Source: Pocillopora damicornis (Eukaryota). From it: a DNA stretch of 64,000 nt. Under the pieces are notes generated by a model that made no database searches, was not told the DNA's origin, and saw only the letters and a program-made list of their open reading frames with translations. Position 1 is the stretch's first letter. Every line of letters starts with the position of its first letter. The stretch spans positions 124,001 through 188,000 of the forward strand of contig NW_020846063.1 in NCBI RefSeq assembly GCF_003704095.1. The letters are read 5' to 3'. Below are positions 37,655 to 61,269 of the stretch, in pieces. Made by a program: the position numbers and the translations under genes.

Positions 37655-37835
37655 AATAAAGAGGGTAGCTTTCTGAAAAAAGTTGTGTTGCTGCATAGAA
37701 GGAGGGCATAACGAGATAATTTAATTAGTTTTATGAACTGAGTTGATAATGTTAATTCAGTAAGCCACCGCAGAGAGCTTCTAGAAATCCTCTTCGGTGG
37801 CGAATTGACATTATTAACTCAGTTGATAACGTCAA
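37655..37835. mobile_element. Internally deleted palindromic Penelope-type repeat
   Basis: AACTGAGTTGATAATGTTAATTC...GCCACCG is mirrored by CGGTGGCGAATTGACATTATTAACTCAGTT; same family as 44012-44305. Confidence 0.7.
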
Positions 37836-38312
37836 ATCAACATCATAGGTTTCATCAATAAGTAAGAGATCGGTTTAGAGGAGCTGAAATAATTGGCAGA
37901 TGTATGCAATGGAAACATTCTTCGTGAAGCTTTTCTTTCTGCTCCGGCAATCAACTCCATGAAAAGACGTGTCTATTCTGAATATATACAGAAAACAGAG
38001 AATTTAAGAAACAGTCAAAGATTTGTCAAATTATCGTCATAGCGCTCAGTCAAAATTTTCAGAACACTCATTACTATGCATATCGCGTATTTCATTATTA
38101 ATTTTTACTCGTATGAAATCTTAGATGCCGCATATGAACATTTTAAAATAGCGTGCTGAACACGTCGTACAGAACGAAAATCATTTTGTACATCCATCTC
38201 TTAACCATTTATATTTCTCGGTAGAAAATACACTTGTTCCTTTAGGTATTGCTTACAAACTATAATCCGTCTTAGTACCACTTTAGATAATAATAATTTT
38301 AACTTCAAGTTT

Positions 38313-41300
38313 CTATTCTTCTGAGATTTCCTTAGATCCTTTTAGAAACTCGGTGGCGCGGGCCTCCATACAGGCGCGATAGCCCTCCCGATGATACGCT
38401 GAAAATTGGGCAGGCGTGAAGAACTGATTGACTGTAGAATGATACGGGAATTTACCACAAAGAGAACTTGATAAACATTTCAAAATAGAGCAATGACAGC
38501 ATTCAAAGAGGCAAAACGTCAGGCGCTCCACCTCTTCTGGTTCCAAATCAGGTCCAGTCCCCCATAGGCCAGACTCGATATCGGTTTTAAAGTGATCATT
38601 CAACTCGTCCCAGCTCTTTCGCCCTCCCGGGAGGCCATCATTTGGGTGACGTGGAAGAATATAAAGCACTTTTCCGTCACCAACTTTCTGTTCTTCCCCA
38701 TCTTCGTTCAAATCGTAATACTCCACTTTAAATTGATAACTCCTCGGTCTCTTTCCCATTGGCTTATCGATTACCTTTGCTCTGATGTCTTCGATTACAT
38801 CTCTTCCATCCATTCCTAAGAATGAACATCGTAGTTTTTGTCGAGCCTGTTCCAGGGAAATGAGCAGATCGCTTGCTACTCCCGAATCCTTTTCTACAAT
38901 TCCCCCATCGACCACCAGGATCTTCTTTAACCTCCGTTTCAGTAAAGATAAAAGGGCCAGGTTTTCAATATGGCCTCCGTCACTCAGGTAAAGAATTGAA
39001 GGGGGAGTGGGACCGACATTGTCTACCCTCAAAAGTTCCCGGATGACCCTGACATGATACACGTTGACGATACACCACCTACAGAAAAAGAAGTGTACAA
39101 CTTAAGTGTTGGCTTCTCAAAGGTTGTCCTGTTTGATAAGCATTGTACCGTAATATATAATTGTAAGTTACAATGTGAAGCGTTTAATGGGCGACTCAAA
39201 AAATAAGTTCAAGATTTTTCGCTTATTCTAGTCGATTAACATTCCTTTATGTCACCATACGAACAGTTTGCTATTAAGCTCAAGATCTATATATCAACTC
39301 AAACCTGTCGCTAATCCGAACTTAAGACAATTTCTCTCCTCCTATTCCTTATTATTCCGAGCCTGTTAATTAAAATGCGATTCCCTTGAACAGACATCTG
39401 AAGAACATAACATTTCGATTGATCAGTCCGTGTTCGAAAGGATTTGAATGTTTGCAGGATGATCTCGAAAAGCTTGAAACAACTCAGGTTTTTTTTTTTG
39501 GTCAGGTTAACAATACCTTACAAAATGTTCCCAGCATCTGGGATTTTCAGCGCCCGTGGGCATGACGGCAATCAGCGTCGACACGCAGAAGAACACGAGA
39601 AAGAAGATGACGGCTCTCTCGTTCCAGACCTCACTTCCGCCCAGGATTGGTATCAAAGGTAGCAACAATATGGGAAGTGCCAGAACAAGATGAGTGAGAA
39701 CAGCGAGAAACTGGGAACAATTGGAAGGAAAGAGAGTGCTGGTCAATCATTTGCTGCTTAAGGATCATTCTTCCAAAGTCAAATAAAATTGTAAGGCTTG
39801 TTTAAAAATATATCCTTTTCTAAGGGTAAAACTCTCTTTACCCGACAGTCTCTAAATCACTACATATCCTTTTTTCTTAATTTGTTGAGGGGAAGAAATC
39901 GCTGGACGTTCACCTTCTTCCTTGACCATGATCATTAATGTCCAACGACCGCTTCATTTACTTATTTGTTTCACTGACTTACTATGGATATCACGTTTAG
40001 TGAATTATGTTTATCAGTATAAACTGTAACATACCCTTGAAAAGCATCCCCGACATCTGGATTCAGCTTTAATAGCTGCCCCCATCCCTATTCCAAGCAT
40101 AATCTGTAAGTTCTGTAATTGTTTAAGGGTGTACTCCCCCATTCGGTACGACACTACAGCTGCTGAAGTTGCCATGGCATCTACTAACTTAATATCTGCA
40201 GGATGGAGCCTGCTTTCGAACTGTTTTGCTCCCCGTGTATTGTCAATTCTTTCAATTCTGGAGGGCGCCATAGTAAATAGCTCGTACGAAGATCCTCTAG
40301 TGGAGAAACAAAACATAATTTCCATAAGACGTGGGCCGTTTTCTTGGAGGGAGAGTTCAGGAAAAGGGAATCAGTTTTATCGAATTCTGAGAAGTGAACA
40401 CCGGCCAGCACATCTCGAACAGGTCCTCTACAAGTCGCTTTGAGTGTCTACTGCGTAAAACTAGCTTGAATTCTTGCGACTGATCACAGCGACAATATTG
40501 TTCCGCGAAGACAATGATTTCACGGTTAAGATTATGCAAGATAATACAAGACCACACCCGATCTTGAGTTCAGACCGCGTTTGAAACCTGAGGAAATGTT
40601 AAAGCGGTAACTTTCATCCTAACATTCAAAGCATCAAGGAATCAGTGAGCCCAAGTCAAATCCTTTTTCAAGTGAAAATTTTGACATTTAGTCACTAACA
40701 CTCCTGTTTTAATCTTTCATGTATTATTTATTAAGATAAACTGGTTGAATTCCTGTTACCTATGTGAAGAGGGAACTCTCCATTCATGGACAGTCGTATT
40801 GCAGATGTATTCAGGTGAAATGCCAGCCAGATCGTCAAGGGTCAAAGGTCGATTCAATCTCTCAGCAAGTGAACAGCACGTAAACAAAGGAATGAAGTCT
40901 TGACACGTGAATCCGGAACAAAACGTGGACGAAGTAGTCTCGGGAGAGTAAAACGCTCTCTGGAGTCGCCACCTTGAAAAGGACAAGTATCATTTCAATA
41001 ATTGACTTAAGATGACCTCTCTTTTAAAGGATACTTGTACGAACGCAAAAAAAAGAGAAGAACAAGAAGAGAGCTAGTCTAGATGGTCAACAGTTTTGAA
41101 ATCAAAAGAAAGTCGATGCAATAAAGTAGTGAACCAAAATGGTGTATCACTCTGAAATAGGCTGAAGAAGCGGTGAAATCTCTTCAAATTGTCTAGCTTG
41201 TTCTAGTTTAACACTTTTTTAGTCTATGACGTATTTTGACAACAAGAAATACATAAAAATATTTGAGCCCTTGTGGTCTTCTCTTGCATGGGATGATCTA

Positions 41301-42812
41301 AACGAAAGATACCTTATGAACGAAAATGACATTTTGGTTGGTACATTGCTCTTGTTTTACTATTTTTCCATGGCGTTTCATCGTATCTCAGAGGTTTTAC
41401 TTTTGAATTGACGAAAGAAGTGTAGTGTTTCTTCATATATTTGGATATAAATACCTTTACTTAGCTATTAAATAATCTTCATTTTATTGATTAGCACACA
41501 CTTGACCGCAGTCACGTGATTTTCCTTATATACCATTGCTTATAAATAAGTTCATGGCATTCTAATAAAGTAGTTGTGTAGAGCACTTGGTCTGATTCAC
41601 GGGTTACTCTATAGTGGTATATCAAACTCTAATACACAACAAAAATGCACCATCAAGACAATTTGATAAACTAAAATTCATCCTTAAATTATCAGTTTCA
41701 CCACAAGTATCATTATTATCATCATCATCGTTATTGCCATCGTCATCATCATCGTCTTTGTTGTTATTGTCATCGTGACAGTCATTGTCAACGTCATTTC
41801 ATCGTCACTATCGTCGTTAACGTTACTATAATCACTATCGTCAATACCTGTTGTAAGCATGGAGAGCACTTCTTTGAAACACACCCAGTAAAGGATGGAT
41901 CCAGATTAATACTCCAGAGATCCATACTAGGATATAAAATGTAACTTCGTCGTATTTTACAGAAAGGACTTCTGTTTTATAGACTCTCCACTTAACAGCG
42001 TATGCATAACAATAGACAGCCACTGCTAAAGAAGCTTTGTTTCTGAGCGGTGGTATACCAAGCCATAAAAAAATGCTCAGAACTAAAATCATAGCATTCA
42101 GCCAATAGGGAGTCACAACCACAAACTCTTCTATGAACCACGGGAAAAAAACCATCGCAAACACGAACCCTGAGAAGTTTGACAGGAAGCTGGCAAACGG
42201 TTTTAAAGATGGACCCACCACTTTTTTGATGACAAGGAAGAAAAGAAACAACAAAAAAAGGAGAGCAAACGTAATGATCGTAGAATACATTTCAGGGCCG
42301 AATTTGGGGACGCATTCGACTGTTTCTGTCATATTGAAAAGCACGGAGGCTGCGGGATTTTCCACAAGTTCAGCTTTGGTGAAATTGTGTTTTTCTTCAT
42401 CGGGGCAGGTAAAAGGAATTCTCATCAAATAACCGAAGAAGCAATCAATGATTAAAGCAACAGGAAAAGCAAAACCAGACCAGTTGGAGACTGGAAGAAT
42501 GATTACCACTAATATGAGAAGAAAGAGAAGTGTAAAGGTATCTAAGATCCCCTGCAGAGGTTTCTGCCAGTCACAAATAATTCCGACTCTTCTGCGCATG
42601 TTTGCGAAGAATTCCCGATGCCATTTTGGATCGTCTTTCTGCTCATTCCGGTATTTCCAGTCCAGATAAGCTGTGCCTGTATAACCGCCCCCTGAAGTAC
42701 AGCTGAGGAAGTCTGGAATAGTCTCTTTTTGAAGTAGTCTGCGCAGCACACCGGAGCATAGTGCCGCTGACCGAATACCACCACCTGAGAACGCCACACC
42801 AGAGGTAGTCAT
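38313..42812 (-). CDS. Multi-pass membrane patatin/cPLA2-like phospholipase, 799 aa; exons 42812-41848, 40972-40760, 40296-40035, 39710-39517, 39078-38313
   Basis: Five GT-AG exons (965+213+262+194+766 = 2400 nt) join in frame, and an in-frame stop precedes ATG 42812. Oxyanion loop SGGGIRSA, nucleophile SCTS40GGGY, YICNTT, AMATSAA, catalytic YLSD578GGHIEN, ILVVDG. About nine hydrophobic segments lie between the Ser and the Asp. Confidence 0.88.
41700..41843. repeat. Degenerate (ATC/GTC/ATT)n triplet microsatellite at the start of patatin-gene intron 1
   Basis: Read directly; it begins just after the donor at 41847. Confidence 0.85.
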
Positions 42813-43779
42813 TCTACAATGGCTCTATCTGCGTATGACACATACTGGAACGAAAAGATACAATTAATTTATGAACGTATTTTTTTAAGAGTTTTTTAAT
42901 CCCTGAAATCCTTTTACGGCGAAAACAGGGTTTGTTTAATGACAACTGAGAAACCTTAAATACCCCATAAATCTTCAAACTAAGTATCGCTTCACCATAC
43001 GTGCAATATCTCCTCTAATGGCAGGAAAATAAAATAATTGGTTACGGGAAATTAATCAGTCTTAACGAACTGAAGCAAGGATATTTTAACTCTATAATTA
43101 CGCTGAAAGGTTGTAAAAGTATTTGGAGAAAGATGTCTAGATTGTACAGTAACGTGCTCAATAATCACTACTTTAATTTTTCGTAACTTCTTTTTGCTTC
43201 CTTTCAACAAAGCTATCATTGTCTCTAATCAAATAAGTCCAATTCTCGCTCATAGTGAACTTCACTGAATAATAAGAATTATTTCTCTATTTACTCACTG
43301 CTATTACATTCTTAAACCAAATTTTTGAAATAATTTGGAGGATTGGTAGAACAGAAAATTAGTAGGAGGAGGACACTCATGATTTGCAGTAAGAGTTCAA
43401 CATCACTCCTTCAATAATCTCAAAGAAAATATGTGGATAATAAAACGTTTCATTGTTGCTAAAGGGTGATAAACATGAATGAAAGGTTTCGTGTCAAATT
43501 TAGAGTAGAATTTATAAATATGAACAGGCTTTGCCTGAAATAAGTTACTGCTAATTTGCACGGTTTTATCGATGTAGGAAACGTTTCTGTTTGATATGGA
43601 GGGGCAATCTGCAAAAACTGTTGTTAAAAAGTCTGTCAGATGTGTTCCTAAACGGTACCAGCACTTAACACCAGGGTACCAGTGATCCCTTAAAACTCAC
43701 AGCATAAATGTATCTTTCTACTAGTAAATACCTCGTTACATGGGGACTTTTATTTTCTTCCTTGTGGGATTTTAATCAA

Positions 43780-43935
43780 TCCTTAAGAGCAGACTGAGCT
43801 CTCTGTCAATCAAAAGGATCTAATCTGCGAAGGATTCCTAACTTGATTCTCAATTGTTGACTGAGGAAGTCACACCGGTACGATTACGTCCACATCTGCG
43901 TATGACTCAAATCAGAACAAAAGGTATAAAACAAT
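43780..43935 (-). pseudogene. Decayed duplicate of the start of the first coding exon of the patatin-like gene
   Basis: ATCTGCGTATGAC occurs at both ~42827 and ~43894. CTGAGGAAGTCACACC matches CTGAGAACGCCACACC, and GILRRL matches GVLRRL. Stops and frameshifts are present. Confidence 0.45.
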
Positions 43936-44011
43936 TATCAACTTCTTTTTGACATCTTTCGAATCGTCTGGTCCCTCTTTAGCTTAAACAGGGTTTGATC
44001 ATCGACAACTG

Positions 44012-44305
44012 AATAAAGGGGACAAGTTTCCAAAGTTGTAACTCTGCCGCTGCGTCGGTGGAGGGTAGAACAGGACAACTTGGTCTCATCAGCTGAGTTG
44101 ATAATGTAAATTTGCCGCCGTAAAGAGTTCATAAAGCTCACGTTTCGAGTGAAAGTCCTTCGTCGGAGTCCGCCTTTATTAGACCTTCGTCATTCGCGCG
44201 CTCCGACGAAGGGCTAACGCCCGAAACGTCAGCTTTAGAATATGTTTATGGTGGACAACTCTCGCACATTATCAACTCAGTTGATGAAACCAAATTATCT
44301 TGTAG
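44012..44305. mobile_element. Palindromic Penelope-type element with two back-to-back minimal hammerhead motifs
   Basis: Plus strand 44200-44233: GCT-CCGACGA-A-GGGC TAAC GCCC-GAAA-C-GTC-AGC. Inverted copy at 44135-44170. Arms CTGAGTTGATAATGT / ACATTATCAACTCAG. Confidence 0.7.
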
Positions 44306-46702
44306 TAACACATGAGCAGCCACAATTTCTTATCTTCCTCATCCTTTTTCTGGTCCACATGCCACAGTTCCCCACAGCGGTGAAAATAAAACAATTTTTC
44401 AAGAGAAAATAATGGATCATACCCCACTGAATCAAAGATATTTAAGCGCACTTGCTTTAAATTTTGTGATCCTGTAGAACGAGGCAGGCTGTAAAATTTA
44501 TGAAAAGAACGATATGTACATTATCACATAGCGTTCGACTATTTGAATCAAGTGAAGTGAAATTAAATTTTCTCCTATTTCAAAATCGGACCGGCTAAAT
44601 ATGAATTTTTATAGAATTAGGTATTTTATACTTTTTAACCAAAACACTTAAAGCACCGTAGGGATTCATAGACACGCCAGATAGAAATGAGTGCACTTAT
44701 GACCAACAATAACAACTTTATATCCATGTATGATTGTTTCAAAGCGTATTACAAGTAAAAAAAAGTTCAGGTAGTCATGGTAAAGAAAAGCTTTCGTGTC
44801 AAGGTTAGGGTAGTATATGTAAATATTGACGGGTTTTGTGTCAAATATAACGCAACTGACTGGTAAAACTGCCTCGATCTTGGCAGCATTTTCTGTTTGA
44901 TATGCCTTGAAGCAACGTCAAAAAACCAAACACCAGAAATACTTCACCGATTTACTATGTATCTGAAGATACCCTTTCAAACAGAACAAAACATCGATTT
45001 ATCAACAGACTTAACACAGGTAGAGCTCCTAATTATCAAAATGTTGTGTAAAAAAAATGGATACTCAAACTCTCAAAAATTCATAGTAGAAAAGTGTGCG
45101 ACTATCTGTAAATACCTGGTTGCCTTTGAACATTTTTTTGTCGTTCTTGTGTGATTTTGGGATAAATTAGGCAGACAAAGCCTCATTCCTTAGATAAAAA
45201 TGAGCTTTTGAATCAATCATAAGGTCTTATTTGAATAAGATTCGTAACCCGTGACCTGTTAGCCACCCGCTAAAAAACATTAGCCTGTAAGCCGATCAAA
45301 AAAGTTAAAAAAATCCTCTGAACAGATTGTACTCCATAAATTCCAACAAATCTCATGGCCTGAGAATTTAAGGAAGAAGTTAGCTTAAAATTAAATCTGT
45401 TTATTTAAATATGTGTATATTAAATATGTTTGTCTCCCTCAATTTAATGGAGACAAACATGTCATTCTTTAGAATCGAAAAGAACGATCTTGAAAGTGCA
45501 GTAGATTTATTGAAAAGTTGACAAATTTCTCGTGAACTAATTAATCACTGATGAACTAATCTCGATGGAGAGCAACGGTCAAAAGGATCCATTGAATCAG
45601 TAGGGCATTCTTGCGCTCACAACAAATTTTGAAACAGTCTTTTATTAACAGCAAAAAACTAGAGAGAAAGAAGATGAAAGGAATTGTAAAGAAACGAGAA
45701 CAAAAAAATGCAAGAGGTTTATCTATTAGCAGGAAACAAACAAAATTCAATACTGAAACTCCCCAACTTCTTCATATTTATCCACACAATCTTAACATAA
45801 CACCGCGTTCCCAGCCTGAGCCCTAGGCTGAGAAATTGGGTTGTAATAATCTTGAAAATAAGTCAATTTATTAGAAAAGTTCCCACACCTGGCCTCAATC
45901 TGAAGTTGAAGGCTTTTTAGACTCGGAAATGACCGATTAAAGCAATTAATCGTAGCGCCATGAAATCCATTTCTTTTTCTTTATTATTCCTTTCAAAAAA
46001 CGCGCAACGGAGTTGCGAATTTCCTTTTTTACTGACGGATATCCCGGATGTAAACCTTCTCAGAGTTTTCTTTCGTGGCTACGATTGACGAGAAATCCCT
46101 CCAACTGTGATATTATTAGAATCGAGAGGAGACTAACAAAAATTCATGGATTAATTACATTCAAGCGCTGAGACATTCTACAATCACTTGGGCAAATTGC
46201 TTTCGATAACAGCAGGCTGACCCTATTTCAGCTGCTAATGCAGGTTGAACAATTTAATAAAAACTTGTTATTTTCATTTTCATTTCAGTTTCAATCTAGT
46301 TATATTTTTACCTAAAAAAACAACTTCAACTGTTGTTATCAAGCAAAAAATTGAGGTTGAACGGTGTTTGTCCATCCAGTTCTCTGGTAAAAACGGGAAG
46401 ACGGAAAGTTTCTGATACTAAAACGGTGACTGTAACTAATGACTCTCATAAAACTCGTACAATTTATCCATAAGAACGCTTTATTGCTTTACAGCTCCGC
46501 CCGTGAAAAATCCCTAGCAACAATTACAATTGTTAAGCTGATCTTTTATGCAAAGTATATAGCAGCACGATCGCTAATGAATGAAAAACAAACAAAAAGA
46601 AACTCGCATGAACTTAAAACAACACAGAAGGTTCGAGAGCATAACTGAAGGTTTGAAAAAGCTGCGTTTCTGTAAAAGTTGTACTTTGGCATCTTTGCAA
46701 GA

Positions 46703-49700
46703 ATGTTTTCATCGATTCTTTTTGTCGGCCTGACCCTAGCTAAAGAGTTCCTAATTTCACACGCAGTTTATAACGCAGACAGGTAAGTTTTATTTAAGTG
46801 TCAGTGAATGAAATTTAGCTTCTCTTGAGGTTGTAGTTGTCTCTTCCTCGGGTCTTGTTCTGAATGAGTTTGGGCAAAAAAAGGTTGGTCGAGCTATTAT
46901 CAAAATCACTTGAAGTAGTTCTAAACGACATTTGGTTTTAAGTTAGTGACGAGGAGTCTTTTTGAAAGCTAGATGTGTAAGTTCTTCTGTGACCATTGCA
47001 AATTGAGAACGCTCACTGCTCTAAAACTCAAACCGTAGTTTAACTTTTACCAAAACTTGACACGAAAATCCACGTTGAGGAGTTATTTTATTTCAAAATC
47101 TCAAGTTTTCCTATTGTGTACTTAAAAAAGAAGTTGAATACAAGATATTCAAAATGTTTATCAACTTTACGATCATATTTCTCTCTAAAACCTTCATCTA
47201 TTATCATCTGCGGCTGAGGGTCAGTCTCAAATTATTTATGCTAATCAAAAGAACCGCTAAAACATTTATTATCTCAGGATAAAATTATTGGGCTGCGTGA
47301 TAATTCGTGTGGGTTTGCTCCTGTAGCTCTAATGCGGCTAAATTGTGGACCATCTTTAAAGCATTTAATATCTAACAACACAAGTATCTGTTTTGTATGA
47401 TGTAAACTTTTCTGGCCTGCGTTTTCATGCTCTTCTATCCCCTATCTTCAACTGAAATTGAGAAAAACAGATAAAACCAGAGCAGGTGATTAAGACAATA
47501 GCGCTTAATTGTTAGCCTTGCTGGTCGCTTGAGATCTCGTTCAATGATAAAAACCTCTGTTTAATGGTGAAATACACAGCCCACAGAATAAAGAGAACGT
47601 CAGTGATGAATCAAATACACTACTTTTCGTGAAAACCGAGTAATTTCATTTCAGCAATAACACTCGCACGACATTGGTTTTGAAAACGTTGTTTGAGGGA
47701 TACGACAAACGGCTGCGACCCAATTTTGGAGGTAAAAGGTTATGTAGTTATACTGAGAAAGTAGTCATAAACTGTGAATATCATTCATGCGGTCAGAGGA
47801 CAACCAGGTTTAAATCAGCCACTTTTTGTTTCAATTAACCATGAAAATGTCTCACTATTAAAAGCCTCCCTATTAAGAAAATAAAATAAAATTGGCCCGC
47901 GTAATGATTTTGTAAAAGTTCACGTTTTGCTGTGCATGTTTCGTCCTGTTATAGGCTGGGAAAGATTTGAATCAAATTTTAAACTCTAAGCAAGAAAATT
48001 AGGACATTTTCATTTGCGTAGTTTTTTTTTCAGGTCAGGCTCAGATTCAAACTAGTTCACGGATTATCTCAAATTACGTTTTAATGAATTATCACAAAAT
48101 GGAATTAATATCTACATAAATCACTTCATCTTTATTCAAGATAAAATATGTCTTTAACCGCATCCTTTTTAAAACATACCACTTAAAACAGCAATTAGCT
48201 CGGAACGTGAATGAATCCACATTATTGTGCTTCATAATGCAACCAGCTGCTTGCAGTTTTCATGATTATGAATCAGCGAAGCCAAGAAAATAGTTGATAG
48301 ATGAGGTTAAAAATTTAGAAAGGTTCAATCAAGTGTTTGCAGTATCCATTAACTCTTTGATCGCTAAGAGTGGTAGGCATCCATTTTCTCCCGACAATTT
48401 CATCGCTGAATCAAAATCGAGGTTATAAGATTAAAGAAAATTATCAAGAAGGAAAAAATGTCTTGGTTTTGAAACATCTTGTCTCCTTTTCAGTATCACA
48501 GGAAATTAATTTGGAACAATTTGGAGATTAAGCACACTGATTTTAGGGTGTAAATAAAATACGATGATTATCACAACTCCTAACACTTTCTTTCGAAGGT
48601 CCTCCATGCAAAGTCAACATTTCTATGCATGTTTTGTCAATGGTGCCAATCAAAGAGATTGATATGGTAAGTTCTATGTGGCGAACGTGGCTTGGTTTAC
48701 AAAAAAAGCTCATAACTCTTTTTCTCTCCCAGCAGACTGATGAGAGTCACCGGAGAATACTGGACTTTTATATTCAACGGTCAAAATATCTTTATCGAAA
48801 CCCTGCGTACGACTATTATCTACTCAAATAAGTCATAGAGGATTCCAAATAATTAATAAGCGGATCGGTCATTACTTATCACCAGAGGGCCGGGAGGGTC
48901 TGGGGGTGGGAGGTTGATCACATGGTTTTTAGTGAGGGACGGAGGGGGGAATCAATCGTCGCTAACAAAGTATAAAAGGGGGGGGAGGGGGAGCGATAGA
49001 TAACTGCCAATGAGCGGGGAGCATTAGAATAGTACAGAGCCTTAGGAAGAACAGATAACCTTTATTGTGACACAACCAATAATCCCCCGTCCCACTTTGG
49101 CGATAAATAATGAAGGTTCCTGGATAGATCAGAGAAATCAGTTTTTGTCGCATGCAAAGCCTGGCTTTAGTTGAACTGGGGTAAGAACAAATCTTGTGAA
49201 TATTCTAATATTCAGGAGGAAGGGGGCACAAATTGGAACCAAAAAACACAAGAACAGGGATTATCTTGAGAGGAACTGTATTCGTTCGACTAGGGAATAT
49301 TTCACCTCATAAAAACCTCTCACAGGGGAGGGGTGGAGAGTGTTTAGCTATCGGATGAATATGAAGTAAAGTTATACAAACTTGTCGTTTAACTTTAGTT
49401 GCCTCGTATTAATAGATTCTGAAATGTTTCATGTATAGATCATGTGGCTGTTTGTTATTTTTATATGAACGAAGGAGGCGACATTCGTGATGTTTTTTCG
49501 TCAGCATTGGTTCGACCCTCGTTTGGCTTATGGCCCCACCCTTGGAATGCCTAAAATGAAGCTGAGTGGGAACATTGTGGACCAGGTTTGGATTCCAGAC
49601 ACGTATTTTGTCAACGATTTGACCCAAAAAACATCCTGCGCAGATTTTATGTTCGAACTCTCACAAGAAGGTGTCATCACGCATAGTTGCAGGTTAGTTT

Positions 49701-51991
49701 AAGTTATCTTATTCTTTGCACTTTTTTAATACCTAAATTGGCTCCCTAGTTCGGGTACAGCCAGTTTGTGGAGTTAAAAGTTCGGATGTCCTTAAGTCCT
49801 CTACAGACCAAAATAGTATGGTTCATATAGAACAACACCCCTACGTTGATATTTAAGCTGTTTGACTGTAATATATTACAGGATTACGAAAAGCATTTTA
49901 CCTCAATAAAAAACACAGTAGAGTCGAACGTATATGTAGGGCTCATTCTCACGTTTTCTATACTTTTGATTTTCTTTAGACTGAAACTAAGTTTATACTG
50001 TCCGATGAATTTGCGAAAATTTCCAATGGATGAACAAGTCTGTGAAATGATCTTTGAAAGTTGTGAGTATGGACTTGAGAGATAACCAAAATTGCATGCA
50101 GCTATGTGACTCACGATCAGAAAGATGTCGAGTGGCGTAGCCAATCACATTGCAGCTTTTGCAATAAACCACTACTTGGTCACTTAATACGAAAGGGTAA
50201 AATTAATACTAGTTCCAGTCACCCTCAATGTTTTGAAGGCGGGAGTAATATTTGATGGCGTAGTCTGATTGTCCAGGTAAGAGTAGTCTTGAGGAGGACT
50301 GCTGTCGGTAAAAGTGGCTGACGTTTCAAAACCCCTGTGCAGAAGTCAGCTCAAATTGCCAGCTTTTCACTTTGGGTACTTTGGAGGGAAAAAGATGATT
50401 TAGATTAAGAGAGATGAAACTAGGAGGTAAGTCTCTATAATATTTCTTGTGATTTCAGATTCTTACTCCACAGAAGATATGATCTTATCTTGGCTAACTG
50501 GTGGTAAAGATTCGATCGGTGTGTCAGGGGAACTACAGATTCCTCAATACACTCTAAAGAAAATAGAAATCTCCATGAAAAGTCATGAGTATAGCACAGG
50601 TAAAATGCAACAGCTGGATGGCTGGGATTGTGCTGTTTTTCAATCCATTTCATGGGTAAACAGAGGGGATGTGGGAAGAATTCATGACGGAGATCTGAAT
50701 ATTTTATCACATTTTCACACATGCGCAAACCTATGGAATTCCTTCAAGAAAGCAAAACCCAAAAAATGAGTCGAGCAACCCTTAAGGTTAATCATCCTAA
50801 GACAGTGATTCTAGGGGAGGTAAGAGGAGGAGCCAAATTAAATTTTATGATGATTCTTCATTGTATGCATTGTGAGAAGCTGAAAATAAAAAAAAATAAG
50901 ATAAAAACTGAAATTTGTTTATGATTAACACTTTTCGATTTTTTCAAAACCGTTTTTTTTTTCAGGTAATTTTTCGACCTTGTTAGCTAGATTCCACCTT
51001 CAGAGACAAATTGGCTATTACATTCTTCAACAATTCATCCCCACAGTACTTATTGTAGCTCTAAGCTGGGTTGGTTTCTGGATCGATGAACGTTCGGTTC
51101 CGGCACGGGTATCGCTCGGAATCACAACAGTCCTCTCCATAACTACGCTAATGTTCGGTATTCAGTCGAGCCTGCCGAGAGTCGGTTACGTGAAAGCAAT
51201 CGATGTGTTCATCTTGGGCAGTTTCCTTTTTGTGTTCGCTGCTTTATTGGAGTTTGCAGTGATCTGCTCATTTGCGAATGCATCTTCGTCGAAAAGAGAG
51301 AGAAGGCCAAAGGAAAAACAGGTTGCATCATATGAGAAACCATCTGTGATTTTTGAGGAAATGAATGACGTGGAAAAAAATTATCAAGAAAGTGGCACGT
51401 TTCGACAAGTTTTTGACACCAAAAGAGACGGGATTACGGTGAGTACAGGTCAGAAAAAAATAGGATAAATCAAATCAAGTTGTAATATATAGTTCTCAGT
51501 TCACACAATCTACTTCTCAAGTCCTGGCTTTTTGAGTAATATCAGAAAAAAATCTTTACTTGCGTGCAAATTAATTCATTTATCTACGCGAAGGCTCAGC
51601 AAAAAAAACTTTAAGCATGTAACAATTATTTAAAAAGCTATTTTTTTATGGCGGATGCGGGGGGGGGGGGCTTTTCTAGAACAGCGTGCAAATATTTTTT
51701 TAATATTCAGACCTGATTTTCATGTGCGGTCTCTTTCTTTTATAGGAAAAACATTATCGCGACGAAAATTCTAACTACTCAACGAGCTTCATCCCAACAT
51801 TGGCAATGTCTACAACACCGTGGTTTTCAATTAAGAGGCGAACAGGCAATGCAAGGTTTTCAAACAATCCAGTCTTTTTTCCTAAACTAAAGCCGTGTAA
51901 GATCGATAGACACTGCAGGAAACTCTTTCCTTTGGCATATGCGCTGTATCTTTCAATTTACTTCGCCATTTACTTTTTCATGCCAGTTTGA
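46703..51991 (+). CDS. Cys-loop ligand-gated anion channel subunit (GABA-A/glycine-receptor-like), 461 aa; exons 46703-46782, 47655-47731, 48599-48666, 49475-49692, 49980-50062, 50459-50599, 50966-51438, 51746-51991
   Basis: All eight exons join in phase with GT-AG sites (1386 nt). Signal peptide, GYDKRLRP, FFRQHW.DPRL, WIPDTYFVN, Cys-loop CPMNLRKFPMDEQVC, ESYSY, M2 SVPARVSLGITTVL, YVKAID, M4 IDR.CR.LFP. Confidence 0.93.
48349..48555. mobile_element. Decayed TTAA-type MITE in intron 2 of the channel gene
   Basis: TTAACTCTTT...CTAAGAGTG...TTTCTCC...ACACTGATTTTAGGGTGTAAA, similar to 55575-55781. Confidence 0.55.
48858..49122. mobile_element. MITE, probably PIF/Harbinger-type; same family as 63591-63799
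   Basis: GGATCGGTCATTACTTATC ... GCGATAAATAATGAAGGTTCC TIRs; internal GATCACATG and ACTGCCA blocks shared with 63591-63799. Confidence 0.65.
50260..50350 (-). mobile_element. Truncated Penelope-type terminal-repeat fragment with a partial hammerhead
   Basis: Minus strand TGACTTCTGCACAGGGGTTTTGAAACGTCAGCCAC...CAGTCCTCCTCAAGACTACTCT retains the GAAACGTCAG half only. Confidence 0.4.
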
Positions 51992-52190: not shown

Positions 52191-53273
52191 TTATACCGCA
52201 GGCTCATTGTTTTTACAACCCTCACTTTTATCGTCAACTTTTCTTCGAATCAAGATTGAAACAAAGGTAACCAAGATGGCTGATAGGCAAGTCGTGCCTC
52301 CGAGGATGTAAAAAGCAATTGCATAGCTCTGCAGTCCATCATAAATTATCCCAGCAATCAGTGGTCCAAGTGTGCGAGGTACAGACAACAACAAGAAGGA
52401 CATTCCTAAGCCGTACGACACTTTGTCCGGACCAAGAATGTCGCATACGATCACAGGATTGAGGATCAGATAAGCTCCGGCAAATAATCCAAATATGAAC
52501 GCATTTATAGCTAAAATGGGGTAAGATTCAGTGACTGGTACCATAAAGTTGCTGAATCCCATGACTAGGAACGCTAACTGAACGATGTACACGCGATTGA
52601 AACGTCGGATATCCGATAAGCGCCCGACGATAACACGACCGAATGCCGATCCAACTGTCACGAACGTTAGAAGAAGAGAGGCTCGTGTCTTGTCGATTCC
52701 GATGTCTTCAGCAAGGCGCACCTTTGAAAAGGAAAATAAAGATTGAATTTAAGTAACTCCTGTAAAATTCTCAAGTAGTTCATAATTGGTGTGAAGATAC
52801 AAAGGACGAAGAGTGGTTTTCTTAAATGGGAGCGATTGCAATTCAACGAACTGCAAGTCGAACACCGCTTATAAAAATTTATGTTGTGTAACAAAACCAA
52901 ATGGTTATAACTACAGACAAATACAAATAAGGTTTAAAATCTCACCAAGTGTACAAAGGGGACCATGTATCCAAGCATGAAGATGGAAACAACCACGATC
53001 CACATTAAGAATGCTTTGTTTTTTAAAATTCCCCAGTCAAAAAGACGCCTCTTCTTAACAAACGTAGTTATGACATCATTCTGATGAGGCAAAACTCTAC
53101 GCTTCGGGCGATAGACAAGTGAAAATACTGAGAGGAGAAGATACGCGCCCGCAAGCACGCGAAACATATTTGCCAATCCAATGTAAATAAGCATCTGTTG
53201 CATGCTGGGACTCACTACGCTTCCGCCGATAGCACCACCAAGGGCTATGAGTCCATTAGCAAATGCAAGCCTC
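52191..53273 (-). CDS. SLC16/monocarboxylate-transporter-family MFS protein, copy 1, 3' exons (>53273-52946 and 52721-52191)
   Basis: LAFANGLIALGGAIGG, FDWGILKNKAF, GYMVPFVHL|VRLAEDIGI, GRVIVGRLSD, GPLIAG.IYD...SY.IAFY. Phase-0 GT-AG intron; truncated by the N-gap. Confidence 0.9.
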
Positions 53274-53562
53274 NNNNNNNNNNNNNNNNNNNNNNNNNNN
53301 NNNNNNNNNNNNNNNNNNNNNNNNNNNNNNNNNNNNNNNNNNNNNNNNNNNNNNNNNNNNNNNNNNNNNNNNNTTATAACCATTTGGTTTTGTTATAAAA
53401 CATAAATTTGTATTAGCGGAGTCCGACTTGCCGTTCGTTCAATTGCAATCGCTCCTCTTTAAGGAAACCACCTTTCGTCCTTTGTAGCTTCACACCGATT
53501 ATGAACGACTTGAAAATTTTACAGGAGTTATTTACTTTCAATCTTCACTTTCCTTTTTATAG

Positions 53563-54093
53563 GTGCGCCTTGCCGAGGACATTGGAATCGACAAGACACG
53601 AGCCTCTCTTCTTCTAACGTTCGTGACAGTTGGATCGGCATTCGGTCGTGTCATCGTCGGGCGCTTATCGGATATCCAACGTTTCAATCGCGTGTACATC
53701 GTTCAGTTAGCGTTCCTAGTCATAGGATTGAGCAACTTTGTGGTACCAGTTACTGAATCTTACCCCATTTTAGCTATAAATGCGTTCATATTTGGATTAT
53801 TTGCCGGAGCTTATCTAATCCTCAATCCTGTGATCGTATGCGACATTCTTGGTCCGGACAAAGTGTCGTACGGCTTAGGAATGTCCTACTTGTTGTTGTC
53901 TGTACCTCGCACGCTTGGACCACTGATTGCCGGAAGAATTTATGATGGACTGCAGAGCTATGCAATTGCTTTTTACATCCTCGGAGGCACGACTTGTCTA
54001 TCAGCCTTCTTGGCAACTTTTGTTTCAATCTTGATTCGAAGAAAAGTTGACGATAAAAGTGAGAGTTGTAAAAACAATGAGCCTTCGGTATAA
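53563..54093 (+). CDS. SLC16/MCT-family protein, copy 2, last exon
   Basis: Acceptor TTTATAG at 53562. 166 of 176 aa are identical to 52721-52191, and the preceding intron also mirrors 52722-52910. Confidence 0.88.
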   Translation: MRLAEDIGIDKTRASLLLTFVTVGSAFGRVIVGRLSDIQRFNRVYIVQLAFLVIGLSNFVVPVTESYPILAINAFIFGLFAGAYLILNPVIVCDILGPDKVSYGLGMSYLLLSVPRTLGPLIAGRIYDGLQSYAIAFYILGGTTCLSAFLATFVSILIRRKVDDKSESCKNNEPSV

Positions 54094-57880: not shown

Positions 57881-58151
57881 ATGGAACAGAGCAGGACAAT
57901 CAGTTGTGAGGCTAACGAGACTGAATTGGGTGTGAAAGTGCTTGCTGAGGCTTCAGAGGGAGGAGATCCAAGGGATGTTCAAAGTTCTGACAACAACATC
58001 GAGAAAAACCAGCGTAAAAATGAACATCAATTTTGTCTTGATGTAGGGACTAAAACAGAAGGATGTAAGGGAGAATCGAGAGCCCCTGAGTGCAATAAGC
58101 CTCATTCTGATGAAGAGGCTGCCACAACGCCTCATTCTGATGATGAGGCTC
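57881..58151 (+). CDS. Probable first coding exon (acidic, disordered N-tail) of an SLC16/MCT copy, cut by the gap
   Basis: The acceptor TTTTGGTAG directly precedes the ATG, and the frame stays open into the gap. An in-frame paralogous exon lies at 58410-58252. Assignment to the MCT is inferred from the duplication geometry. Confidence 0.6.
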
Positions 58152-58251
58152 NNNNNNNNNNNNNNNNNNNNNNNNNNNNNNNNNNNNNNNNNNNNNNNNN
58201 NNNNNNNNNNNNNNNNNNNNNNNNNNNNNNNNNNNNNNNNNNNNNNNNNNN

Positions 58252-58410
58252 ATCAAGACAAAATTGATGTTCGTTTTCAAGATATTTCTCAGTGTTGTCG
58301 TTAGAACTTTGAGCATCCCTCGGTTCTCCTCCCTCTGAAGCCTCAGCAAGGACTTTTACACCCAATTCAGTCTCGTTAGCCTCACAATTGATTTTCCTGT
58401 TCTGTTCCAT
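58252..58410 (-). CDS. Probable first coding exon of the other SLC16/MCT copy, cut by the gap
   Basis: TTTTGGCAG|ATG; MEQNRKINCEANETELGVKVLAEASEGGEPRDAQSS... is colinear with MEQSRTISCEANETELGVKVLAEASEGGDPRDVQSS... Confidence 0.6.
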
Positions 58411-61269
58411 CTGCCAAAAAACGATGTAGATTAATGTTATTTCTTGTCCTCTCTTTCGCCTCTCTGGAGCGTTTTTTTTGTTTTTTTTTTTAATATCGCG
58501 ATGCAAACCAAATTACATCCAGTGATTTTTTGAGGGTAATTGGTACTGAGGGAAATAGAAAATTTAACCCTCGATCTTTCCACCCCTCTAAACGTTACTA
58601 GAATTGAAATAAATTTTCTAAATAGAGTGGTCTGCAGAAGTAGTTTCGCTTGTAGCATCAACTTTTTTTATTTCCAATGTTTGATAAGTAACTTTGCCTT
58701 CTACTTGTTACACATCCCCTTTAGAATTTGTGAGGAGAATTTGGCGTTACATCAGTATAACACCCTCTAAGGACTCTTTATAGGAAGTCTATTCATTCTC
58801 TTCCCCTGTTGGTAATGATAAAAGTTTTGTATGAACAGGAGAAGTTACACGTTGACAAGATCTTGTTTAGCTCATAGTGGACAGTTTCGCAATCGAATTG
58901 ACTTGTTACGCGTTAGGCGGTCTCATGAGCGCAGAGGTGTGTCGTTCTGAAAGAATTTTACGTTGAATGTCGCTGTTCCACCCCACTCTTAAGGATAAGA
59001 AACTATACGGGATCAGTGATATTTTGATTTTTTTTTTTTTTTTTGATGACAAAAATCCAAGGGATGGCGTTTACACTCGAATTAGCATTCACCAAGAGAT
59101 TGTGAATATTCTCCTGCCTTCACTGAGACAGTAGTCCTCTCGCGGTATGTATAAAACGAGCTGCAAATGCAGTATTTGCAAGTTGAAAGATGGTTCACCT
59201 ACTCTCATAATCGAGCAGATATTTAACCAGAGTCTAGGTAGAGTTTTGGCAGTTAAATTCAGTCGAACTTTGCTCTCAAAACATAAACAAAAACAATCGT
59301 ATGGAAGTGTGAGCAACGAGAAATGATGCAAAGGGAATTTATGGCATGCAAAGTATTCATATTGATATGAACTACTAAAATTAATAGCACTCTGGAAAAG
59401 CGTTCAGGAATTGTTTGGGCTTGTACGATAATCTTGAATTCCTTGTGAGTCATGTTTTATCATGTGATGCAAGACCACAAGTATGGTTTTTGCTTTTGAG
59501 TGATGTGCCCTTGATCATTATAATAGGGCTTAACTTTTAGACGGTAATCACCATTGCTAATCGTGTTTGGGTTTGTCCACTGACCTTGCTCAGAGTCCTC
59601 AACAGGAGGTCATGTTTGGGTTTTAGCTTTCTAAGAGCGATTGTCTTTCAGGTAGCTTTTGTTCATTTCGACAGTCTCGTGAAATTTGATGGGTTGGTGT
59701 TCTAAAGAATACATTTAATCTGCCAAGGTCAGTTGTCCAGTAAGCCCACACACGCCCACCGATGGGTTTTTAAGAACGTGTACCTGGGGCTAAGAGGATA
59801 GGTCAGAAAAGAGCAGCAGTAACCCCGAATAAACAGTCAAACCATATTCATAAGAGGTCAATCGAGCAAAAAACCCACTTTCGAGCGGTTTACCGGCGTA
59901 ATTACGCACGTGGATGTTGAGATAACATGTGAAAAGTCGCTTTCTTTTATCATTACACAAAGTGGACGTTTCCGAATAAACAAACACATCCACAAAATAT
60001 GTAGGATCGTGATTTCTATAAATGTTGTAAACTTATAACAGAGGTATCGAGTTACTGTCGAATTGTCGAATTACGTTTAATCATAAACGTACTTGCACAA
60101 TCGTTTAAAATGGTATTATAGCAACTGAATGTTTTTTGGAACAATTGGTTTTTTCCTTCTTTTAGTATTATACAAAATGGACGTTTAGCGAATAAACAAA
60201 CACATTCACAATACATGTTTGAACGTGATTTCTATCAATGTTTAACTCATAGTTAAGGTGTCGAGTCACTATCTAAGACAAATAATCTGATGCCGGAAAA
60301 AAGCACAGGCAAACATTTTGTCTGAAATTAGCGCTGCAAGACTGAATGATGTTTAAATTGTAGAGCACGGCAGCCTAAGGAAAAGAGGATTGTAAATTGA
60401 ACACGATTTCAATTTGACAGAAAAAAGGAGTTCTATAAAATGAAATCATTTCATCTTGAGGTCGTTTTCACATTTCTTCCAGATGCATACACAAAAGAAT
60501 AAGGTTTTTCCTAATCCACTACTGGTTGTTTCAAGCAGTTCAAGGCGTATGAAATATCGCAAGTTTGGCCGTTTCCGTCCCTATGGGATGTAAGCATGTT
60601 TAAAAAAAAAGTGTTCGAAATGTGTTAACTAACCTCTTTGCCAAACACTTGCACGAAAAAGTCGAAAACTCCTGATCTCTCTTTTTTTTCCCTCGGAGTG
60701 AGAAAGCAAACACAGCTTAGAGCTACACCTCGGTTCAAACTGAACTTGGATGCGAGCAGAGGGTTTCTTTATGGGCGTCGCTTATGCTGATTTATTGTTG
60801 TTGAGTTGTCTCTAGGGGGTTGTATTGCTGCAATAATTTGTTTATTATTCCGGCCTCTTGACGCAAAAGGCGAAGCAAAATCTGCAGGCGAACTGAAAAG
60901 CTGAAAAAAGGGAGGACTTAATTTGTGGACAAAGTCAATATTCACCAGTAGGCGGGCTTAGCTCTGCACTAAAATAAAAGTTTTACTCCAACTCAGGGGC
61001 TATTCGCATGATCAGCTTAGTGAATGCTTACGCAGGAGTTCAAGAGCGTCCTAAAAATACATTGAAAATTACGTTAACAATGACGTAATTTCCTCGTCAT
61101 CTGCAAAGAACCCACTCCGTTGTCATTTGCTAGATCTATTGCATGACACTCGGTTTGGTTTCTGGGCTCTGTTTATTGTTTTCAAAGGACCATAAGCTCC
61201 TCTTACAGTATTCATTGACCCTTCATTAAGCATGTATTTTTTTAATGGGAACCTTTAGCATTTTTCAGA

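Follow-up and report, generated by a model that had tools for sequence, protein, structure and literature searches.

A spliced coral gene predicted to encode a cPLA2/patatin-type lipase divided by membrane helices

The window analyzed in this study, a stretch of 64,000 nucleotides from the coral Pocillopora damicornis (contig NW_020846063.1, positions 124,001 to 188,000), carries on its minus strand a gene whose product is likely a phospholipase A/B of the cPLA2/patatin fold, according to our predictions, with its catalytic domain divided by helices that cross the membrane. The original prediction, made from the sequence alone, described an intact five-exon open reading frame (ORF) of 799 amino acids, and this description stands: the coding sequence is 2400 nt long (799 codons plus the stop), and its four introns, of 875, 463, 324 and 438 nt, are all of the GT-AG type. 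The gene model was obtained by searching for GT-AG borders near the expected places, which left six open combinations; the one of 799 amino acids was chosen because it has clean splice sites at all four introns. Transcripts agree with this choice, since all four coding joints, with the predicted intron lengths, are present in the RNA contigs of the three RNA runs (X1, X5 and X13, from three studies), and a single X5 contig of 2686 nt covers the entire coding region. None of the four joints occurs in run X18, in which the introns are covered, as in DNA. The RNA contigs X1 and X2 also add an untranslated 5' exon, separated from the first coding exon by a GT-AG intron of 887 nt. The starting methionine is the same in the orthologues; a coding extension further upstream was considered and ruled out, given that the upstream exon contains stops and short upstream ORFs and that the orthologues begin at the same methionine. 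The coordinates of these features are collected in Table 1.

Table 1. Features of the lipase gene, in positions of the window.
Feature	Position	Strand	Content or basis
5' untranslated exon	~43732..44093	-	RNA contigs X1 and X2 splice 43732 to 42844; the upstream end is approximate, being where the contigs stop
Coding exon 1	41848..42844 (coding part 42812-41848, ATG at 42812)	-	Residues 1-322: oxyanion loop, catalytic Ser, membrane helices 1-6
Oxyanion loop SGGGIRSA, residues 9-16, including Arg14	42765..42788	-	Motif read in the translation
Ser40, predicted nucleophile, in S-C-T-S-G-G-G	42693..42695	-	Motif and conservation
Predicted lumenal/extracellular loop 132-174: Cys136, Cys167, sequons at Asn144 and Asn161	42291..42419	-	Row conservation
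Insert 1, six predicted helices (~85-131, 175-198, 204-231, 236-252, 260-278, 289-329; the last enters exon 2)	41848..42560	-	Models; sidedness from loop composition
Coding exon 2	40760..40972	-	Residues 322-393: re-entry into the catalytic domain
Coding exon 3	40035..40296	-	Residues 393-480: AMATSAA and G-x-G-x-G stretch
Coding exon 4	39517..39710	-	Residues 481-545: insert 2, two-helix membrane hairpin of the eukaryotic branch
Coding exon 5	38313..39078	-	Residues 545-799: C-terminal catalytic part; stop at 38315-38313
Asp578, predicted general base, in YLSDGGHIEN	38979..38981	-	Motif and conservation

Two further observations concern the 5' end of the transcript. First, the spliced leader (44093-42813, minus strand, about 394 nt) contains six upstream ATGs, all of which open short upstream ORFs, the last stopping two bases before the main ATG; these upstream ORFs may damp or regulate the translation of the lipase mRNA. 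Second, in contigs of X5 and X7 (one study), 42844 is joined to 43758 rather than to 43732, and the skipped part has no initial GT in the assembly; this junction may be an allele or a species difference.

The full catalytic set claimed in the original prediction, namely a GGGxR loop, Ser40 and Asp578, is borne out in the positions of the motifs and in the conservation of the residues. Arg14 is kept in all 19 cnidarian-group rows and in 70 of 70 bacterial rows (the latter had been filtered for this motif), the position of Ser40 holds serine in all 119 rows counted, and that of Asp578 holds aspartate in 19/19 cnidarian-group and 29/30 other eukaryote-side rows. Other recognizable motifs are AMATSAA (residues 433-439) and ILVVDGG (598-604), and two conserved elements are specific to the family: a His-Glu-Asn after the aspartate and a C-terminal F-P-x-x-x-T motif. 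Two positions before the nucleophile, cysteine or threonine occupies all 19 cnidarian-group rows, and threonine, serine or cysteine occupies 69 of the 70 bacterial rows.

The Pfam Patatin model (PF01734) matches residues 7-57 of exon 1 with an E value of 1.2e-4 and 22.8 bits, which is below the curated cut-off of 27.7; the closest orthologue, LOC111330315 of Stylophora pistillata (86% identical over the full length), scores 18.4 bits against the same cut-off, and some relatives pass it, on the N-terminal 50 residues alone. With PF01735 (PLA2_B), the Stylophora orthologue has no match at E<=0.1 and a search of the genome misses this locus. An NCBIfam search with 19 proteins gave no family match, just two weak off-target rows for one protein, and a PDB sequence search with the cnidarian profile returned no match at E<=1. 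In the ESM Atlas, we found patatin-labelled clusters only.

The fold was assessed on a predicted structure. With 81 relatives as input besides the Stylophora orthologue (82 sequences), the model of the latter reached a predicted local distance difference test score (pLDDT) of 91.6 and a predicted template-modelling score (pTM) of 0.91. When the whole model was searched with Foldseek, the sole match at E<=0.001 was human cPLA2-alpha (E 6.3e-4), which was also the best match in VIA-align (1CJY; Z 19.9, root-mean-square deviation (rmsd) 4.4, 377 residues aligned over the model range 1-801). It was followed by PlpD (Z 19.4, rmsd 3.1, 232 of 255 residues), cPLA2-delta (Z 19.1), CapE (17.0), patatin (16.2), CapV (16.1) and VipD (14.6), with iPLA2-beta also among the matches; altogether, 18 cPLA2/patatin entries have a Z of 14-20, and the next unrelated fold drops to 4.7. 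The alignments of cPLA2-alpha, PlpD, cPLA2-delta, CapE, patatin, CapV and iPLA2-beta all extend from residue 1 to about residue 800 of the model. Since a compact patatin chain of 255 residues matches the model at its two ends, the prediction is of one domain assembled from distant stretches: residues 1-84, about 330-475 and about 560-799 would fold into a single cPLA2/patatin catalytic domain. The earlier claim that a membrane bundle splits the catalytic domain thus finds support in the model of the orthologue. The membrane insert modelled alone (pLDDT 93) has no Foldseek match at E<=0.001, and its best VIA-align score is a Z of 7.8 on a 52-residue hairpin, a result that recognizes no known fold and does not prove the fold new.

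The models contain six long helices in the first insert and two in the second, and the composition of the loops between them suggests which side of the membrane each one faces. In 54 cnidarian-like rows, which are related, so that the counts are not independent, the loops after helices 1, 3, 5 and 7 have 9/14, 6/13, 15/12 and 7/15 Lys+Arg/Asp+Glu per 100 residues, and those after helices 2, 4, 6 and 8 have 29/3, 18/1, 17/3 and 13/6. The loop after helix 1 bears glycosylation sequons in 39 of the 54 rows, at 3.4 per 100 residues versus 0.3-0.5 in the catalytic parts, and Cys136 and Cys167 are each present in 53 of the 54. From these signals we infer a protein with both termini inside, with six plus two passes, and with the catalytic domain, Ser40 and Asp578 on the cytosolic side. 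A topology that set Ser40 and Asp578 on opposite faces would have spoken against the enzyme; the loop charges, the sequons and the cysteine pair put both on the same side. The original prediction had counted about seven helices after the serine and two before the aspartate: the latter two are supported, while the first insert most likely makes six passes according to the models, the loop charges and the sequons. Its hydropathy has six peaks of at least 1.4, two of which (88-106 and 114-132) share one long helix, and helix 260-278 falls below that cut-off. An arrangement of seven passes in this insert was ruled out by parity, the loop charges and the sequons.

The coral protein fits a family present in bacteria and eukaryotes that is defined by its motif string and by a multi-helix insert between the catalytic serine and the middle strand. 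At E<=0.001, a full HMMER search gathered 12,964 clusters, a number that falls to 257 at 1e-30. The original prediction had pointed to a bacterial family of membrane patatins, and that family is real: a scan of GTDB with one peptide pattern found 508 relatives, of which the best 80 were fetched; the family shares the motifs and the first insert, 70 of the fetched proteins having both ends in order and 69 of the 70 at least three hydrophobic helices between the loop and the aspartate. In a Pirellulaceae ORF (L056:1273-5124), the hydrophobic helices precede the oxyanion loop, and the aspartate motif follows the loop after just 96 residues or so, a different and unsplit arrangement.

As to the range in eukaryotes, 106 of the best 150 HMMER matches have an identity of 45% or more with a named cnidarian protein. 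The named matches of the first two protein searches were restricted to Hexacorallia, Octocorallia or bacteria, and a third search, which yielded largely proteins of bacterial type, left the range of named eukaryotes as it was. Three EukProt matches came from one series, and the one looked up was the jellyfish Sanderia. When 20 long divergent matches were looked up, eight carried the name of an organism: Sycon ciliatum (three), Gefionella okellyi (two), Cyanophora paradoxa, Protostelium nocturnum and Planoprotostelium fungivorum. The named eukaryote members are therefore cnidarians, a sponge, a malawimonad, a glaucophyte and amoebozoans, from four supergroups; the named sponge and protist relatives score 448-180 bits in the full HMMER search, versus 114 for the best bacterial-type match of another search with the same profile. 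No bilaterian was present among the named matches of the protein searches or the look-ups, although this is weak evidence of absence, as the word-based searches also missed the Sycon and protist members; loss of the family in bilaterians is likely. The patchy spread in animals that had been anticipated is supported, the named animals being cnidarians and one sponge. Some eukaryote-side relatives have C1, EF-hand or leucine-rich repeat (LRR) domains, which suggests that the enzyme is under regulation in some lineages; no such domain is present in the coral protein.

For the phylogeny, trees were built on 284 soluble columns, with FastTree for 162 rows and with IQ-TREE under a mixture model for 80 rows (37 of the 70 bacteria and 10 of the 19 cnidarian rows, one long Gefionella row being left out). 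In the IQ-TREE result, with which FastTree agrees, all named eukaryotes lie on one side (support 100/99) and the 37 GTDB bacteria on the other (100/99), with two rows between them; cnidarians and Sycon are grouped with a support of 99/88. None of 22 further long top matches without an organism name falls inside the animal group, and one fragment (P0278) has a slightly higher score with Sycon than with cnidarians. A second character comes from the two-helix hairpin of insert 2: at least one hydrophobic helix is present there in 19/19 cnidarian-group rows, 8/8 other named eukaryotes and the 22 further top matches. All 70 GTDB rows lack it, and their segment measures about 39 residues versus about 100. 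The hairpin is also present in 2 of 43 other rows, and these two fall outside the bacterial group. As the hairpin helices lie outside the columns used for the trees, the hairpin is an independent character that agrees with them. In the sampled tree, the bacterial branch would be a sister group and not a parent of the eukaryotic one, and the family is likely an old eukaryotic one, inherited vertically with many losses. The idea that animals acquired a bacterial gene is not supported, given that animals are not nested in the sampled bacteria but are placed with protists from three further supergroups, with which they have in common a hairpin that the sampled bacteria lack; patchy retention, the alternative offered in the original prediction, fits better.

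We propose that the gene encodes a cytosol-facing, permanently membrane-embedded Ser-Asp acyl hydrolase of old eukaryotic descent, which serves in membrane-lipid remodelling and fatty-acid release. As a whole we consider this statement probable, if not strongly so, and its core, an active Ser-Asp lipid enzyme with this topology, highly probable. In the mechanism that we envisage, helix 1 would act as a signal anchor into the secretory pathway, as there is no signal peptide; six helices, and then the two-helix hairpin, would cross the membrane in pairs and so leave the catalytic domain on the cytosolic face, with the first outside loop presumably glycosylated and disulfide-bonded. By analogy with cPLA2/patatin chemistry, Asp578 would activate Ser40 for attack on an acyl ester of a cytosolic-leaflet lipid, the oxyanion and the phosphate would be held by the Gly-Gly-Gly-x-Arg loop, and the products would be a fatty acid and a lysolipid. 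The helical bundle would take the place of the calcium-binding C2 domain of cPLA2, keeping the active site permanently on the bilayer, and would probably select the substrate. The most likely use is the remodelling of membrane lipids and the supply of free fatty acids, possibly to the oxylipin pathways of the coral, which is the weakest step.

It is important to note that several observations weigh against this proposal. Regarding the enzyme, the GxSxG motif is absent at the nucleophile, where Cys38 stands at position -2 in place of the first glycine; the fold is a prediction made for the Stylophora orthologue, from which the proximity of Ser40 and Asp578 is derived; the charge of loop 5 (15/12) is not clearly that of an outside loop; and the genome has ordinary PF01735-type cPLA2 genes on four other contigs, so that fatty-acid release needs no membrane-split family. 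Regarding the descent, an organism name is attached to just eight of the 20 non-cnidarian top matches that were looked up, the bacterial set of 80 loci is a small part of the 12,964 clusters, and the tree is unrooted. In an approximately unbiased (AU) test on 34 rows, a tree that joins animals and bacteria apart from the four protists was not rejected (p 0.76) and outscored the quick free tree; in the quick 34-row tree, animals are not one group, and the branching within eukaryotes is weak. The weak branching and the unrejected tree leave room for two origins from unsampled donors or for transfer between eukaryotes. In addition, the groups compared in the AU test were picked after seeing a tree, and two bacterial groups only were tried.

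The first rival is that the protein is a triggered immune or cell-death effector that destroys membranes, like CapV and CapE of the cyclic-oligonucleotide-based antiphage signalling systems (CBASS), the bundle sensing a signal or damage and unleashing the lipase. The fold is common to CapV and CapE, one relative bears LRRs, and the coral duplicates include tandem, partial and broken ones, as is often the case in immune families. Most of the bacterial neighbourhoods, however, consist of unrelated housekeeping genes (80 loci, with 187 of the 606 called neighbour ORFs scanned), and two contexts recur among the loci. In three of the 80 loci (L014:7975-10089, L017:3256-10483 and L026:3451-10945), TIR and SLOG genes adjoin the lipase, one of them with an RT-TIR retron-type gene and another with a TIR-CTD2 gene; the lipases of these loci have an N-terminal extension of about 200 residues of unassigned kind, and a further protein, P0046, is a SLOG fusion. 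The combination of TIR/SLOG and lipase is possibly an undescribed defence module, even though links of this type may already be in print. In the second context, RoxA-like haem proteins are encoded in the fetched flanks of eight loci (L046, L047, L052, L054, L058, L083, L091 and L092), directly upstream and tightly coupled in five of them, which hints at lipid oxidation within a portion of the bacterial branch. Both contexts, as well as the extra domains, lie in distant branches and do not fix the role of the coral enzyme; the proteins linked to TIR/SLOG genes are from a bacterial subclade that is distant from eukaryotes. Moreover, none of 12 family proteins scanned has a PADLOC match, the coral protein has no sensor domain, and this copy is an ordinary spliced mRNA in several studies. 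The cell-death role suggested earlier thus finds nothing in the coral enzyme and a weak hint in bacteria, and we consider it unlikely.

A comparably small chance is given to the view that the enzyme is mainly a transacylase, which would move acyl chains between membrane lipids via an acyl-serine intermediate. Such activity is found in cPLA2-gamma and in the phospholipase B of fungi, a lipid would be a likelier acceptor than water at a buried site next to the helices, and the His-Glu-Asn and F-P-x-x-x-T elements are specific to the family; against this, hydrolysis is the default of the fold.

Regarding the origin, a single entry into eukaryotes could have been followed by sideways spread among them, for example from prey or symbiont protists to early animals. 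The named range is indeed very patchy, the deep branching is weak, and the amoebozoans are not reliably next to animals. We nevertheless rate this course of events as not very plausible, because the group of cnidarians and sponge fits the presence of the gene in an early animal ancestor, the named members come from four supergroups, and no specific donor lineage stands beside the animals. Direct transfer of a bacterial gene to early animals or cnidarians, followed by the gain of introns, is very unlikely: it would agree with the large bacterial family that shares the motifs and the first insert, with the lack of named bilaterians and with the unrejected tree, but the nearest non-cnidarian relatives are those of sponge and protists by bit score, the eukaryotic side is single and shares the hairpin that the 70 bacteria lack, and nesting was rejected for both bacterial groups tested (34-row AU test; p 0.017 for animals with the deepest bacterial row, 2e-8 for animals with a seven-row bacterial subclade).

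An enzyme specific to the remodelling of the symbiosome in the coral-alga symbiosis, as had also been suggested, would suit a membrane lipase with many copies in symbiotic stony corals, but it is most improbable as the function of a family with members in Nematostella, Desmophyllum and Dendronephthya (several copies), which have no algal symbionts, and in Sycon and protists, even though a single paralog could still have been recruited.

The hydrolase that we favour is not alone in its genome. Exon 1 is matched from its start at 14 places on nine contigs, 38-56% identical to this copy, which gives at least 14 copies, and exon 5 has 27 matches; tandem copies occur on four contigs, most copies have their breaks at shared positions (near residues 322, 480 and 545), and some are partial or contain stops. 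Three regions (C1379:21828-32925, C2150:293791-312545 and C1129:739119-740817) hold, between them, internally duplicated middle exons, copies that are inverted or partial, and one copy with several stops, with assembly gaps in some of the stretches. A paralog (C1554:57014-57769) and a Nematostella protein (P0032) keep the aspartate, have lost its DGGH context and have SGGN at the serine; they could represent a subfamily with altered chemistry.

When compared with known systems, the coral protein has its best structural match in group IV cPLA2 (cPLA2-alpha 1CJY, cPLA2-delta 5IZ5), with which it also shares the Gly-Gly-Gly-x-Arg loop and a serine and an aspartate that are far apart with structure between them; it differs in its two membrane inserts, in an identity of 14% and in its failure to match PF01735. 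An N-terminal C2 domain is present in all group IV members except cPLA2-gamma, whereas the coral protein begins at the oxyanion strand and has no such domain (the orthologue starts agree, and the upstream exon is untranslated). With the patatin/PNPLA proteins of PF01734 (potato patatin, PlpD, iPLA2-beta), it shares the core fold (Z 15-19), the Pfam match on the first 57 residues and the DGG motif, but it scores below the Pfam cut-off, has no GxSxG, and its domain is split by eight predicted membrane helices. The CBASS proteins CapV and CapE and the secreted ExoU and VipD have a patatin-type fold in common with the coral family, which differs from them in having no PADLOC match; these four proteins are soluble and are activated by cyclic nucleotides or host proteins. 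The bacterial membrane cPLA2-like lipases, annotated in NCBI as 'patatin-like phospholipase family protein', have the motif string and the first insert in common with it and lack the second hairpin, and no curated NCBIfam model matches the family. By its predicted fold and dyad, the protein would work like a cPLA2/patatin enzyme, while it falls outside PNPLA by motif and score and outside group IV by domain content.

To our knowledge, characterized cPLA2/patatin lipases reach membranes by separate domains or single anchors. The apicomplexan PfPNPLA2/TgPL2 are likewise patatin-like eukaryotic proteins with a membrane segment, and they are set apart from the coral protein by description, not by sequence: in the passages available, the transmembrane segment is N-terminal, with GXSXG at 1166-1171 and the aspartate at 1201 (PMC10711835), and no split dyad is described (PMC10711835; bioRxiv 2023.04.28.538693), so that this identity was rejected. 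Two patatin passages of the lipocone paper concern other systems (PMC12419801), and the patatin passages of the BcTir/Tpr preprint concern patatin-TPR (bioRxiv 2023.05.26.542521). In a full-text literature search, which covered neither subscription papers nor supplements, we found no study of a membrane-split cPLA2-like family.

The rest of the window contains other genes and repeats. A high-copy repeat lies on both flanks of the lipase gene (44100-44305 and 37780-37880), with very high contig depth and many loose ends. About 2.5 kb upstream of the lipase gene starts a spliced transcript in head-to-head orientation (plus strand, 46595-46782 and 47655-47733, with a GT-AG intron of 872 nt); it likely encodes the signal peptide and the N-terminus of a Cys-loop channel whose membrane part is at 50929-51465. 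Near-identical exons of the major facilitator superfamily (MFS) and a repeated low-complexity stretch occur at 52191-54093 and 57881-58512, on either side of gaps filled with N, and are possibly a recent duplication or an assembly artefact. The other genes are three rhodopsin-type receptors, an EGF-fibrinogen protein with a PAN exon nearby, and a DOMON protein.

What our study adds is the animal branch of the family, together with evidence from transcripts, a signal of the topology and the hairpin specific to eukaryotes. In contrast to characterized cPLA2/patatin enzymes, membrane helices are predicted to break into the catalytic domain itself at two points. With a confident model, and with an expressed animal gene that has orthologues in Nematostella and Exaiptasia, an unstudied family of about 13,000 clusters can be put to the test in a laboratory animal. 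Speculatively, and with considerable doubt on our part, the class might date to the last eukaryotic common ancestor and have a membrane domain unlike any in a solved structure, with loss in bilaterians and expansion in corals to a dozen or more enzymes whose release of polyunsaturated fatty acids would need no calcium-driven recruitment to the membrane, offering a second entry to cnidarian oxylipin and stress or immune signalling. The finding would add to the known lipases an old eukaryotic lipid enzyme that is absent from human-centred catalogues and has expanded in reef corals, in which lipid signalling is important for heat stress and symbiosis.

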